Assembly (NCBI GenBank): GCA_964016885.1
Contig: OZ024745.1
Span: 110,298,001 to 110,362,000, forward strand
DNA from: Eledone cirrhosa
Lineage: Eukaryota
Direction: 5' to 3'
Length of the DNA: 64,000 bases
Shown here: in pieces, positions 5,855 through 35,302 of the stretch
Layout: each line of letters begins with the position of its first letter
Numbering within the stretch: the stretch's first letter is position 1
Notes under the pieces: generated by a model
What the model was told of the DNA's origin: nothing
The model's input: the letters and a program-made list of their open reading frames with translations, nothing else
Databases searched by the model: none
Made by a program: the position numbers and the translations under genes

Positions 5855-5959
5855 GCTGACTGATGAAGATTCCATGATCCGGAATTTGCTGGTTATGGAT
5901 TTATTATTAATCGGTAACCAACGGATTCAGCATAGAATTTGAAACAGTACTGTACCAGT
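5855..5959 (+). ncRNA. Type I hammerhead ribozyme-like motif with 74-nt stem II
   Basis: CTGATGA 5860-5866; stem II AGATTC/GAATTT plus nested GAATTTG/CGGATTC, TGGTTA/TAACCA, GATT/AATC; GAAA 5941-5944; palindromic stem III ACAGTACTGT; GUA site at 5954; stem I GCTGA/CCAGT with an A.C mismatch next to the core. Confidence 0.65.
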
Positions 5960-6179
5960 TTAGAAGTGGATTTTTGTGTGCTAAACTAGGAGGCTACTGG
6001 CTGTTTTAATTTATAAAATTGTGAGTACTTTAATGTTTTCATTTGTTGATACAATAATTACACTTGTCTTCATAGCTTAGGCTTCTGGCTGGGAATGTTG
6101 TGTTACAATTAATTCAATGCATGAGCTCCAAATGAATTTGTTGAACAAATTGTAAACATCGAGATCAAAATCACTGGAT

Positions 6180-6522
6180 CATCATCATCATCATCATCAT
6201 TTCATTTTACGTCCGCTTTTTCCCTGCTTGCAAGGGTGGGACGGGAACTGATTTTGGCTTGGTTTCTACAGCTGGATGCCCTTCCTAACACCAACCTCAT
6301 TTACAGTGAGTGCTGGGTGCTTTTTTGCCGTGGCACCTGCACGACCACTTTGTAGTGGAATGATATGGACCCCAGTCCCTATCATCTCATTTCTACAGCT
6401 GAGTAAACTGGAGAAATGTGAACTAAAGTGTCTTGCTCAACACATCACCCGGTCTGAGAATTGAACTCACAACCCTTCGATTGCAAGGCCAATGCTCTAA
6501 CCACTAAGCCATGTGCCTCCAT
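6180..6522 (-). mobile_element. tRNA-derived SINE family B with RTE-type tail and (ATC)n
   Basis: A-box TGGCTTAGTGG, B-box GAGTTCAATTC, GAGCAAGACACTTTA body; homologous to 43268-43710. Confidence 0.9.
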
Positions 6523-6744
6523 GGATATCGATCTAAACTGTTATCATATATATATAGCATTATATCTGATGTTCTAATGGCTCTGCCAATTTACTCCCTA
6601 TCTGTTTACAGAATAGATAATTCAAAACAATACTGAAGTTGGTGTTAACACATCTAATGCAAAAGAACAAAAACAGCTATATAAAAAACATTAGTTACAT
6701 ACCTCTAACAAATCATCACTGAATATCTGTGGATATATTAAGTA

Positions 6745-6860
6745 TAGGCATAGCTGTGTAGTTTAGGAGTTTACTTCAGAACCATATGGTTTCAGACCCA
6801 TTGAGTGGCCTCAGGTTCATACCAACTCCTTGTGAATAAGATTTGGTAGACAGAAACTAT
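6745..6860 (+). mobile_element. Old tRNA-derived SINE fragment (third family; also 51865-52165 and ~61100-61190)
   Basis: Shared GCTGTGT..AGGAGTTT.CTTC..ACC.ATGTGG and CCTTGTGA.T..ATTTGGTAGA blocks between copies. Confidence 0.6.
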
Positions 6861-6910
6861 GCATATTTATATATTTATTTATATATATATATATATATAT
6901 ATATATATAT

Positions 6911-7010
6911 ATCAGATAGGATGTGGTAAAAATCCAGGTGGATCATAACCCACCAGATCTAGCTGTCAAAATGTCCGGAGCTCAGCTGTCGGGGTCCTGA
7001 ATCTTTTCAT
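6911..7010 (+). mobile_element. TA-embedded fold-back family C, deleted copy
   Basis: Homologous to 16971-17149; flanked by (TA)n. Confidence 0.75.
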
Positions 7011-7784
7011 ATATGTATATATATATGTATATGTGTGTGTGTATATATATATATATAACCCGAAAAGAAGAAAAGATCAATATCATCGGTAACTACTGAG
7101 CCGCAGGTTTTATATCAGAGTTATCCCAGTTTCCTGAGTTGCCTTCTCCTAGAGAGTGGGATTGGCTTAGTGCACAGTCTTTCCTCACTTTAAAAAATAT
7201 CTTCACGCACAGGCATTGCACAATAGAATTAATTAATAATTATCAATAATGGTATAACATGCAATGACCATACTCGATAACGAGGGGGCAGCCATCATAT
7301 ATATATATATATATATATATATATATATATATATATAGATATAGATAGGTAAATATACACGGGTGTGTATGATTGTGTATAGAAGATTATATTAATAAGA
7401 GGAATTCCAACTTTGTCTGATTTACTCGTTTTATTTACAATCCTTTAAAATATATATAATATGGTATTATAATGAAATAGTATGATAGAATATTAAATTC
7501 TAAGTGTTAATTGAACAAGTACTTTCATGCTTTCGCAATCTTCAGGTTCATGATATGTGGTGACAGTCGAGTGCAAATATATATATATGCATGTATATAT
7601 GTGTGGGTGTCTATAACTACAGCTTAGTGACTGAACAAAAAGATGAAAAAAGGACGTACCAGACTTGATAAAATAAGTACTGGGGCATATATGATCAACT
7701 AACACCCTTCAAAATGGTGCCCCATTTCTATCATTTATACACTTTTCTCACTAGATAAAAATATTTTTCTAATGAGAGAACCTC

Positions 7785-31868: not shown

Positions 31869-31869
31869 A

Positions 31870-32060
31870 AGGGCAGTGGATTGGCAGTATCGGTAGAGGG
31901 TCGGACGCCATGCTTTCCAGCATAGTTACGTCCCTTTACGATCTGAGTTCAAATCCCGCCGAGGTTGACTTTGCCTTTCATCCTTACGGGGTAGATAAAA
32001 TAAAGTACCAGTAATGCACTGGGTAATTGCTGGCCTTGTGCCTAAAGTAGAAACAATTAT
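31870..32060 (+). mobile_element. SINE A (young, full length)
   Basis: GGGCAGTGGATTGGCAGTATCGGTAGAG...GAGTTCAAATCCC...GTAGAAACAATTAT. Confidence 0.93.
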
Positions 32061-32199
32061 ATATATATATATATAATATATATATATTATATATATATAT
32101 TATATATATATATAATATATATATATTATATATATATAATATATATATTTTATATATATATATATAATATACATATATTATATATATATATATATATAT

Positions 32200-32545
32200 C
32201 ATCATCATCATCATCATTTCATTTAACGTCTGCTTTTCCCTGCTTGCAAGGGTGGGACGGTAACTGATTTTGGCTTGATTTCTACAGCTGGATGCCCTTC
32301 CTAACACCAACCTCATTTACAGTGAGTTCTGGGTGCTTTTTTGCCGTGGCACCTACACAACCACTTTGCAGTGGAATGATATGGACCCCAGTCCTTATCA
32401 TCTCAATTCTACAGCTGAGTAAACTGGAGAAATGTGAAATAAAGTGTCTTGCTAAGGAAACAACACATCACCCGGTCTGAGAATTGAACTGACAACCTTT
32501 CGATTGCAAGGCCAATGCTCTAACCACTAAGCCATGTGCTTCCAT
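32200..32545 (-). mobile_element. SINE B (second partial copy at 32875-33047)
   Basis: Near-identical to 6180-6522. Confidence 0.92.
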
Positions 32546-32565
32546 ATATATAATATATATATATT

Positions 32566-32874
32566 AAACGGAAAAAATGAAACGAAATTTCATTCCCACT
32601 CTTAGTACGGCTGTTACTTAAATATAAATATGTACACGTACATACATATATGTATACAGACGTACAGTAGTATGTATATATATATATATACATACATGCA
32701 CACATATATATGTACGTATCGATTCACCGAACATTTATTATAATGCTCAGTGTGTTTGTAAACAAATATCCCGTATTAAGCCGTAGTGTCCAGCAACCAT
32801 AGTTGCTCATTTGTTCAACACTGACAAAGGAACGCTGTACTAGTTTCAAGCTTATTAGCTATCGTCAGCAACGT
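32566..32874 (-). mobile_element. Hammerhead-bearing short element (direct sibling at 34230-34530)
   Basis: ~300-bp near-identical direct repeat pair, TA-associated. Confidence 0.85.
32832..32874 (-). ncRNA. Minimal type I hammerhead ribozyme
   Basis: Minus: ACGTTG CTGACGA T AGCT AATA AGCT T GAAA C TA GTA^ CAGCGT. 6-bp stem I; palindromic stem III ACTAGT; U.U at the base of stem II. Confidence 0.78.
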
Positions 32875-33344
32875 GCTGGGTGCTTTTTTGCCGTGGAATG
32901 ATATGGACCTCATTTCTACAGCAGAGTAAACTGGAGCAATGTGAAATAAAGTGTCTTGCTCAAGGAAACAACCCATCACCCGGTCTGAGAATTGAACTCA
33001 CAACCTTTCGATTGTGAGGGCAATGCTCTAACCACTAAGCCATGTGTTATATATATATATTATATATATATATATTATATATATATATTATATATATTAT
33101 ATATTATATTATATATATTATATATATATATATATATATATATATATTGTATATATATATTATATATATATATTATATATTATATATATTATATATATTA
33201 TATATATTATATATATATATTATATATATTATATATATTATATATATTATATATATATATTATATATATTATATATATATATATTATATATATATATATA
33301 TATATATATTATTTATATATATATATATATAATATATATATATA

Positions 33345-35302
33345 GGTATTGAAGTTTCCGTTGGAATTGAAAAAGTCATAGGAGTGAAGAGTGCTCTATG
33401 TGAGTACCAGAGCAAAATTTAATGTATAATAAACAATACAATATAATTACCTCATTACCAGAGGTTTCCCGAATAAGACGAATACGAAAGAAACGTCCTC
33501 ATTCGTTCGTCGGACAAGGCAATATAAAACATAGTGAAAAATTTTTTGGAAAGTCTCCTTCCAGCTCATATAAACTTAACACACTTTCAGATACTTATCC
33601 TCCATAAGCTCTTATTCTTCACTTAAATTATTCTCTTTAAAGACTACTCTTTCTGATTTAATTTCATTTTTAACCTTATTATTAATTTTAATTTTATTTT
33701 TATTTTTATTTTTATTTTTATTTTTATTTTTATTTTTACTTCACATCCACCAGTAACCCCCCCCCCCCTTTTATCCTTCGATTCACTTACCTAATATCTT
33801 CACTTTCCACTTTTTACTTCCCTATTTTCTTTACTACCTGATTCCAGAGGTCACTTGCGTTTTCCACTACAGATATTTTCTGTTATTTCGCAGCCATTTT
33901 TATATTTTTATATTTGTACTCATTTATTCATAAGGCTGCTTTTGAGCGTCTTTATGTGTGTATACGTTCTGTATATGTACGCGAACGCCGCCGTATGTGC
34001 GTGTGCGTGCGTGTGTATATATATATGTGTATGTATTTGTGTTTTTATATCTGTGTTTTTATATCTATGTTTTTACATTCTTATTTTTACGTGTGTGCAT
34101 GTAAGCGGGTCAATGTCCGTGAATATGTTTGTGTGTATGTGTGTATATATGTATTGTATGTATGGATGTGTATGTGTGCGTGTATATATGTATATATATA
34201 TATATATATATATATATATATATATATATAAACGGAAAAAATGAAACGATATTTCATTTCCCACTCTTAGTACGGCTGTTACTTAAATATAAGTATGTAC
34301 ACGTACATACATATATGTATACCGACGTACAGTAGTATGTATATATATATACATACATGCACACATATATATATGCACGTATAGATTCACCGAACATTTA
34401 TTATAATGCTCGGTGTGCTTGTAAACAAACATCCCGTATTAAGCCGTAGTGTCTAGCAACCACCGTTGCTCGTTTGTTCAACACTGACAAAGGAACGCTG
34501 TACTAGTTTCAAGCTTGTTAGCTATCGTCATATATATATATATATATATATATACAGTCGAGTACGTAGGTGTGATTAGATATACATGGGACGATATGTA
34601 TGTATACGTGCATCCTGTGTAAGTATGTACGCATGCATACGCTTTTGTCTGTACGTATTGCGTGTATATATATATTTTTTCTTATAGATATAAGTTTTTT
34701 ATAGATATATGTGTATGTACGCGTGTATCTTCTTTTCTTTTCTTTTCTGTTTTTTTTCTCTAGTGTTAATTGACTACTTTCTCTTTCATTTAAATATTTT
34801 TTATATTTTTTTCTTTCTCACATATTGTTTAATTTTTATACATATATCGAGAATGGCACTTTCTTTTAACTATTACACTCCCTTACCCCTTTATCTTCCA
34901 CATATAAGTATCTAATACCTGCGTCTGGATTCGTGTCAACTAGATTATATCCGTATTTGTGGTTACATATACACAAATATACTTGCCCTCATATATGTAC
35001 TTACGCACACATTTTCACCATACACACGCATTTGTACATACATATGTACATTTGTGAGTGTATATACACACACCTAACTATATTTCCTTATATTTTTTTA
35101 TATATTTTATATGTCTATTGCATTACCTTTATTTATATATACATATATATTTTTTTTGCATTTCTTGAGGAGACTTTCCAAAAAATTTTCGCTATGTTTT
35201 ATATTGCCTTGTCCGACGAACGAATGAGGACGTTTCTTTCGTATTCATCTTATTCGGGAAACCTCTGGTAATGAGGTAATTATATTGTATTGTTTATTAT
35301 AT
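33345..35302 (+). mobile_element. Probable 5'-truncated Penelope-like element with inverted terminal copy and variant hammerhead
   Basis: 33425-33559 is the reverse complement of 35168-35302. A possible ORF end (YKLNTL..*) follows the inversion, then a long T-rich tract. CCGACGA...GAAACCTC..GAGGTA lies at 35213-35278. (TA)n on both sides. Confidence 0.6.
34230..34530 (-). mobile_element. Second copy of the 32566-32874 element, truncated within the hammerhead core
   Basis: Ends ATCGTCA|TATATA, which removes C3 and the 5' strand of stem I. Confidence 0.85.

Follow-up and report, generated by a model that had tools for sequence, protein, structure and literature searches.

Penelope-like elements (PLEs) carry minimal type I hammerhead ribozymes with a palindromic helix III; many divergent families occur per genome, mostly as single motifs from truncated PLEs, with some opposite-strand pairs (Cervera and De la Pena 2014, PMC4209133). 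Elements of the Hydra clade, which includes Hydra-1_Obim of Octopus bimaculoides, insert in (TA)n, have a 3' hammerhead with a palindromic stem III, and are diagnosed by the protein motifs DKT, CxCX5C, CxxC and CxH (Craig et al. 2021, PMC8557442). The same work describes an inverted, truncated arm and a one-sided tail on PLE insertions. This tail has been shown in vitro to be the stretch between two internal start sites of the reverse transcriptase (RT) and was called unique to PLEs (Frangieh et al. 2024, PMC11167929). The retrozymes without long terminal repeats (non-LTR retrozymes) of coral, mussel, axolotl and Xenopus are low-GC tandem units that lack an open reading frame (ORF), have one type I hammerhead each, and occur as dispersed short copies and as large arrays (PMC7229834; bioRxiv 10.64898/2026.07.22.740005). 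Retrozymes have been argued to derive from the pseudo-LTRs (pLTRs) of PLEs by co-occurrence and homology in Xenopus (bioRxiv 10.64898/2026.07.22.740005). This work will focus on 64,000 nucleotides of Eledone cirrhosa (assembly GCA_964016885.1, contig OZ024745.1, positions 110,298,001 to 110,362,000), which we call the window. It holds eight hammerhead folds from six repeat families, A to E and G. We are fairly confident that these are type I hammerheads of PLEs, that B, E and G are truncated coding ends and A, C and D monomers without an ORF, and that C and D were likely inserted in trans by PLE proteins. The proposal of trans insertion is made for C and D only, not for A. The kinds of element themselves are already catalogued (PMC4209133; PMC7229834; PMC8557442, as Hydra-1_Obim; bioRxiv 10.64898/2026.07.22.740005).

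The footprint of the insertions is what ties C and D to the PLEs. The 3' ends of four families fall at two fixed sites, counted from the cleavage site: about +55 and +144 in B, +82 and +194 in C, +219 and +274 in D, and +28 and +111 in E. Copies of G resemble those of B, C and D in ending within (TA)n, at one or the other of two set positions 3' of the ribozyme. For each search we examined the best-scoring 20 to 30 loci with 1.5-kb flanks. TA-rich sequence follows the 3' end in 20 of 23 loci for C and 19 of 22 for D, and (TA)n or TA-rich sequence does so in 38 of 49 for B and 24 of 25 for E. Inverted 5' arms were found with single-arm queries at 14 of 23 C loci and 5 of 22 D loci; the count for B (24/49) is inflated by a first query that spanned both arms. 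A script found none among 25 E loci, and by eye they are present in five, where they start in the ORF or past the gap limit. When head-to-head pairs anchored on both sides are considered, leaving out window loci and arrays, one arm has the long end and the other the short end in 9/9 pairs of B, 6/6 of C, 4/4 of D and 8/9 of G. On contigs C11 (about 30 units) and C1 (five units), D arrays open with an inverted arm that has the long end, and they terminate at the short site. C and D therefore carry the tail described as unique to PLEs, and this supports PLE-driven spread.

Both families are present in the window. The C insertion (18606-19343, both strands) has a short-junction arm on the minus strand and a long-junction arm on the plus strand, both ending in (TA)n. 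Its hammerhead (18678-18758, minus strand) has a 52-nt stem II domain and stem III ACCGCGGT, with the cut predicted after 18683; the inverted copy (19078-19158, plus strand) has the core change G8A. The first copy of D (32545-32875, minus strand) is truncated just upstream of the ribozyme and has its long junction in (TA)n. The D hammerhead (32830-32876, minus strand; predicted cut after 32838) has a stem II of 4 bp, stem III ACTAGT, and a U.U at the base of stem II, position 10.1-11.1, that is found across the family. The axolotl hammerhead HHR_Amex2 has the same U.U base (PMC7229834). A second copy of D (34230-34529, minus strand) lies in a TA run within E and breaks off inside the catalytic core. 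Family A is represented by an old copy on the plus strand (5686-6545, ends approximate) that is split by a SINE-like insert (about 6167-6521). Its hammerhead (5855-5959, core 5860-5866, predicted cut after 5954) has a 74-nt stem II domain and stem III ACAGTACTGT. The first stem I pair beside the cleavage site is an A.C mismatch in this copy; it is G-C in most family copies compared.

In A, C and D the sequence upstream of the ribozyme wraps into the family's own downstream sequence, giving units of about 563, 471 and 421 nt. Copies exceed one monomer at 4 of 25 loci in A, 10 of 23 in C and 18 of 22 in D, after removal of L058, L059, L093, L102, L103 and L141, which overlapped or duplicated other loci. 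The longest ATG frames are 46-77 amino acids, and the GC content of the units is low (0.37). D has two consecutive complete hammerheads, and A and C have only partial second units. D also forms a satellite on contig C28, with 134 units and 105 intact cores in 58 kb; the array ends beyond the sequence, so it is at least 58 kb long. When compared with the untranslated regions (UTRs) of B, E and G, the PLE families to which this comparison was limited, A, C and D gave only weak or low-complexity matches. Judged on DNA sequence, A, C and D count as non-LTR retrozymes as PMC7229834 uses the term. Their units are longer than the typical 170-400 nt of that paper and fall inside the 51-972 bp of Li et al. 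2026 (bioRxiv 10.64898/2026.07.22.740005). They differ from the retrozymes of both papers in that their hammerheads are of the PLE type and not canonical; in A and C the stem II domains are long. In C and D the PLE tail and inversion footprint, for which we found no earlier report on retrozymes, is a further difference. No RNA data set was listed for the D monomer, an outcome that counts neither for nor against expression. In a comparison of D with four runs of unspecified kind, the core has no listed variant; variation at two partnered stem I positions is unphased and gives only a hint. We also note an octamer, ATGCAAAT, found exactly and on either strand upstream of the hammerhead in D (the L090 monomer) and in B (L027 and the L021 3' UTR), with a one-letter variant in C. 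Newt satellite 2 has a small nuclear RNA-type internal promoter, for which we found no confirming paper.

B and E tell a different story from their sequence: we take them to be the 5'-truncated 3' ends of ORF-bearing PLEs of the Hydra clade. Longer copies of E run into a frame with RT and endonuclease about 1.3 kb upstream of the ribozyme, and nine loci have an endonuclease-like ORF end upstream in sense (L112, L116, L117, L124, L125, L133, L136, L243 and L244). B appeared to lack an ORF until a second search was aimed at longer copies; four loci (L146, L148, L150 and L154) then gave an endonuclease ORF end in the same sense, about 1.2-1.3 kb upstream. E has all of DKT, CxCX5C, CxxC and CxH (RWK in one locus), and B, reached in its C-terminal part only, has CxCX5C, CxxC and CxH. 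Given these Hydra diagnostics, an assignment of B and E to Neptune was dropped. Pfam gave no match for the Hydra-type frames of B and E; the Atlas places E among RT-like clusters, with look-alikes at 0.96-0.98, some with RVT_1. By eye, the RT of E is similar motif by motif to that of Hydra-1_Obim, whereas the hammerhead listed for Hydra-1_Obim is unlike those of B and E. B and E share with the Hydra elements of PMC8557442 the (TA)n target, the 3' hammerhead with a palindromic stem III, and the inverted truncated arm with a tail, and differ from them in their 3' UTRs of 1.2-1.4 kb, their tails of about 85-95 nt and the U4C core of E.

In the window, B occurs as head-to-head 5'-truncated arms in (TA)n (17182-17460, both strands), the short arm on the minus strand and the longer-ended arm on the plus strand. 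Its hammerhead, B1 (17225-17285, minus strand), has stem III ATATATAT and a predicted cut after 17233. A sister subfamily, 77% identical to B1, lies at 19797-20119 with the same arrangement of arms, short on the minus and long on the plus strand; its hammerhead, B2 (19919-19984, plus strand), has stem III ATATGTAT and a predicted cut after 19976. The window copy of E has an inverted 5'-truncated arm and the two-end tail. Its long-junction arm (33345-33560, minus strand) has a hammerhead at 33448-33521. The short-junction arm (33554-35297, plus strand) includes the last 17 codons of a Hydra-type ORF (33554-33604), the 3' UTR and a hammerhead at 35205-35278. The E core is CCGACGA, and of 29 E-type copies counted, 28 have the U4C change. 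U4C also occurs, with A.G at 10.1-11.1, in another hammerhead family that is unrelated (L277, L168, L247), and a relative of E retains U4, so this core change seems to be of multiple origin. Our searches also met a very abundant Hydra-type PLE family (L167-L196; 57,719 first-look candidates, frames up to 920 amino acids). Its 3' UTR leads into a long TA/TG microsatellite, and no hammerhead that belongs to the family was found within 1.5 kb. When a third Hydra-type endonuclease end was used as the query, 30 loci showed no A, C or D unit as a 3' end; the exception is one D-like core 1.4 kb downstream in L182.

G, again on sequence, is the end of a Neptune/Nematis-type PLE. The window copy (7340-7574, minus strand) is a young, 5'-truncated 3' end with its long junction in (TA)n. 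Its hammerhead (7509-7553, minus strand) has the core CUGAAGA, a U.U stem II base, stem III AGTACT and a predicted cut after 7517. A full-length parent was found in which a 774-amino-acid frame with RT and GIY-YIG lies between two ribozymes 4,209 nt apart. It has GxKF, DKG, a CX4CxxC linker, RT followed by GIY-YIG, and a pLTR-ORF-pLTR layout. In motifs, domain order and pLTRs it matches the canonical Neptune or Nematis elements with a C-terminal endonuclease. The GIY-YIG domain scores 28.9 bits in Pfam (cut-off 22.6) in L237, and RVT_1 29.5 bits (cut-off 29.6) in L238. All 40 of the 40 best-scoring copies are 100% identical over the query, which makes the family very young. The PAc element also has two fixed 3' ends downstream of its hammerhead, as in G; it differs in being a Poseidon element that cuts AT-rich 5'-ATT-3' sites (PMC11167929).

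An initial annotation of this DNA, made from the sequence alone, listed five folds (A, B1, C, B2 and D), and all of them lie where it placed them with the stem III palindromes it gave. It called every core intact, which is right for B1, B2, C and D, with the reservations that A has its A.C beside the cut site and D its U.U at 10.1-11.1. The full type I layout, a CUGANGA/GAAA/NUH core with three helices and an open-ended stem I, is present in B1, B2, C, D and G; helix III palindromes in the window are 6-10 nt, a point of difference from the minimal PLE hammerheads of PMC4209133. Seven of the eight folds match our descriptor, and A has the one stem I mismatch. The mutated copies mentioned in the annotation are real, being the inverted arm of C and the second copy of D, as are the partial inverted duplications, which are 5'-truncated inverted arms. 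Its four families correspond to A through D; it missed G, and E with its U4C core was not counted. Targeting of (TA)n is supported, but A does not lie inside (TA)n. The idea of non-autonomous, retrozyme-like units holds for A, C and D and fails for B, which supplied two of the five folds and whose longer copies continue into a Hydra-type endonuclease ORF. The search for PLE parents that the annotation suggested was successful for B and E, which have ORF-bearing parents, and for G, where RT and GIY-YIG were found.

We believe these observations can be joined in one scheme. The GIY-YIG endonuclease of a PLE would nick (TA)n, and the RT would begin copying from two points inside an uncleaved multimer or a re-ligated circle; early termination would leave short 5'-truncated arms. 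Inserted copies run through an intact cleavage site, and those of A, C and D often extend beyond one monomer, which indicates that the template was uncleaved or re-ligated. For cleavage, the palindromic stem III is predicted to pair between two ribozymes of a tandem transcript, or to be assisted by protein. Cleavage of this kind would be slow, and the unit-length RNA released would circularise. Dimer cleavage in tandem transcripts fits PMC4209133 and is suggested by folding energies, which are +0.4 to +6.0 kcal/mol for the stem III hairpin versus -2.2 to -14.1 for the two-copy duplex. Uncleaved RNA was the main substrate of PAc, where the ribozyme was protein-assisted (PMC11167929). The lone truncated copies in the window are probably inert by-products.

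Several points weigh against this reading. No fold in the window has the G10.1-C11.1 pair that is called highly conserved in PMC4209133; the pairs are G-U, A-U, U.U or A.G. U4C, as in E, reduces in vitro activity (PMC3088659), PLE hammerheads are poor at cleaving in vitro (PMC4209133), eight of nine Xenopus retrozyme dimers did not cleave (bioRxiv 10.64898/2026.07.22.740005), and cleavage is dispensable for insertion in vitro (PMC11167929). Tails of about 55-112 nt in B to E exceed the published 30-40 bp. In a looser count, long and short ends pair in 11 of 14 cases for C and 4 of 5 for D, leaving 3/14 and 1/5 as misfits. In A the ends gather mainly at one site, about +274, and 0 of 25 loci have an inverted arm. 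If C or D has a rare parent with an ORF, our sample of loci could have missed it. Finally, the covariation described below is for B-type ribozymes only and is partly circular, in that most of the ten members came from a descriptor that demands pairing.

Some of these points lead to the view that the families do derive from PLEs but that the hammerheads are too slow or impaired in vivo, so that uncleaved multimeric RNA spreads and no circles form. This overlaps with our explanation and concerns function rather than origin. The weak or mismatched 10.1-11.1 pairs, U4C, the inactive Xenopus dimers and the insertion of copies across the cut site all favor it, as does PAc, which shows no RNA ends at the cut site (PMC11167929). 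We nevertheless find it doubtful. Among ten B-type ribozymes, 11 of 20 pairs are altered on both sides, a number that 0 of 500 shuffles reach, and 96% of the 199 cells in the alignment are paired. Compensatory change of this kind preserves cores and stems across subfamilies and implies selection on the fold. The U.U architecture is also common among catalogued Hydra hammerheads (PMC8557442).

It could be argued instead that C and D are the tandem 3' repeats, that is multi-copy pLTRs, of long autonomous PLEs, so that their copies are ordinary truncations and mobilization in trans is unneeded. PLEs with tandem hammerheads are known from axolotl (PMC7229834), and B too seemed to lack an ORF until longer copies were sought. 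Even so, we consider this unlikely. Copies of C and D wrap into their own monomer and not into a unique UTR, the 5' flanks of 23 C and 19 D copies show no shared sequence besides their own arms and no PLE frame, and the 134 D units on C28 are hard to reconcile with it. ORFs beside A and C copies (L047, L063, L064) were considered as parents and rejected; TA runs or other inserts lie between, and the ORFs are not common to copies.

We think it quite improbable that A, C and D spread by other means, such as the machinery of LINE/RTE elements or the amplification and excision of satellite arrays at the DNA level. The large D arrays do imply DNA-level expansion, A lacks inverted arms, and there are RTE-like fragments in the window and at the loci. 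However, the fixed paired 3' junctions, the variable 5' truncation and the (TA)n flanks of C and D match those of B and G; A may still have spread in such a way.

The idea that these are chance folds in AT-rich repeats, for which one might cite the AT-rich stems of B and the lack of any Rfam hammerhead match for B1, C, B2, D or G, is refuted by shuffled controls and covariation and is almost certainly wrong. Our descriptor, a type I hammerhead with a palindromic stem III, was relaxed after inspection of the window, and the window copy of A falls outside it through its one mismatch. The relaxed form finds seven folds in the window (B1, B2, C, D, two E and G) versus a mean of 0.02 and a maximum of 1 in 200 local dinucleotide shuffles; a stricter form finds three versus 0.05. 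The cleaner control, because the descriptor was relaxed after seeing the window, is unseen DNA: 40 evenly spaced 10-kb stretches, 400 kb in all, hold 23 folds versus 0-1 in 20 shuffles. Frequency in shuffled controls was the comparison on which the initial annotation had staked its claim, and on both samples the motif far exceeds it. Relatives of the C and D hammerheads were also encountered in the descriptor scans. Across the window no hammerhead is among the 150 Rfam matches listed of 216, which are dominated by microRNA noise in TA repeats.

The same unseen DNA disposes of the initial annotation's claim that the window holds a local cluster. Background density is 57.5 folds per Mb, or 3.7 expected per 64 kb, and the Poisson probability of seven or more is 0.08. 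The 29.5-kb span gives P=0.002, which we discount as its borders were picked after the fact. Extrapolated to the 3.0-Gb genome this density gives about 170,000 folds, a rough figure, since it comes from 23 folds, inverted pairs are counted twice, and the four largest contigs supply 30 of the 40 stretches. For comparison, axolotl has 126,247, mussel about 5,000 and coral more than 6,000, by descriptors that differ from ours (PMC7229834). First-look candidates, which are not copy numbers, are 251 for A, 1,421 and 2,521 for B, 2,799 for C, 2,097 for D, 2,593 for E and 427 for G.

The window also holds TA-targeted elements of 140-200 bp, family F, at 6905-6998, 13060-13152, 14062-14258, 16962-17149, 18422-18591 and 20196-20332. 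With 2,813 first-look candidates, F has the inverted-arm, two-end layout of the hammerhead families; its window copies and 20 loci show no recognisable hammerhead or parent ORF. Its 5' ends are tightly clustered and could mark an RNA 5' end. At L119:1662-2528 a GC-rich sequence, which we presume to be 28S rRNA-like, is joined to an F end inside TA repeats. Several SINE-like families are frequent in the window, one with a weak tRNA match at 6454-6511. A non-LTR element 3' end between (TAA)n runs (30865-31093) is by its motifs presumably R4/Dong-like, and fragments at 14850-15320, 23920-24560 and 27440-28030 we take to be RTE-like LINEs. At 10870-11740 a degenerate, coding-like stretch is possibly what remains of a DNA transposon, and at 57603-61020 units of 49-64 bp based on (CAT)n are repeated in tandem over 3.4 kb.

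Until now the mover of animal non-LTR retrozymes has been argued from co-occurrence and pLTR homology (PMC7229834; bioRxiv 10.64898/2026.07.22.740005). Our literature search, which covered few subscription journals and no repeat databases, found no report of a tail and inversion footprint on retrozymes and no survey of cephalopod retrozymes; the preprint's supplements may bear on the footprint. The footprints of C and D bear independently on how retrozymes are moved, and they name two sites on the RNA for the start of reverse transcription that can be tested in the existing in vitro PLE assay. As for annotation, PLE debris makes up much of the TA-microsatellite clutter in this genome. On balance we lean toward the view that C and D, including the arrays of about 30 units with a footprint otherwise found only in PLEs, are direct genomic evidence that PLE proteins reverse-transcribe hammerhead RNAs without an ORF at fixed internal sites. 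The same leaning extends to the genome as a whole, which with about 57 intact folds per Mb and a near-identical PLE family would be unusually dense in these elements, probably still active, and well suited to reconstituting retrozyme mobilization.

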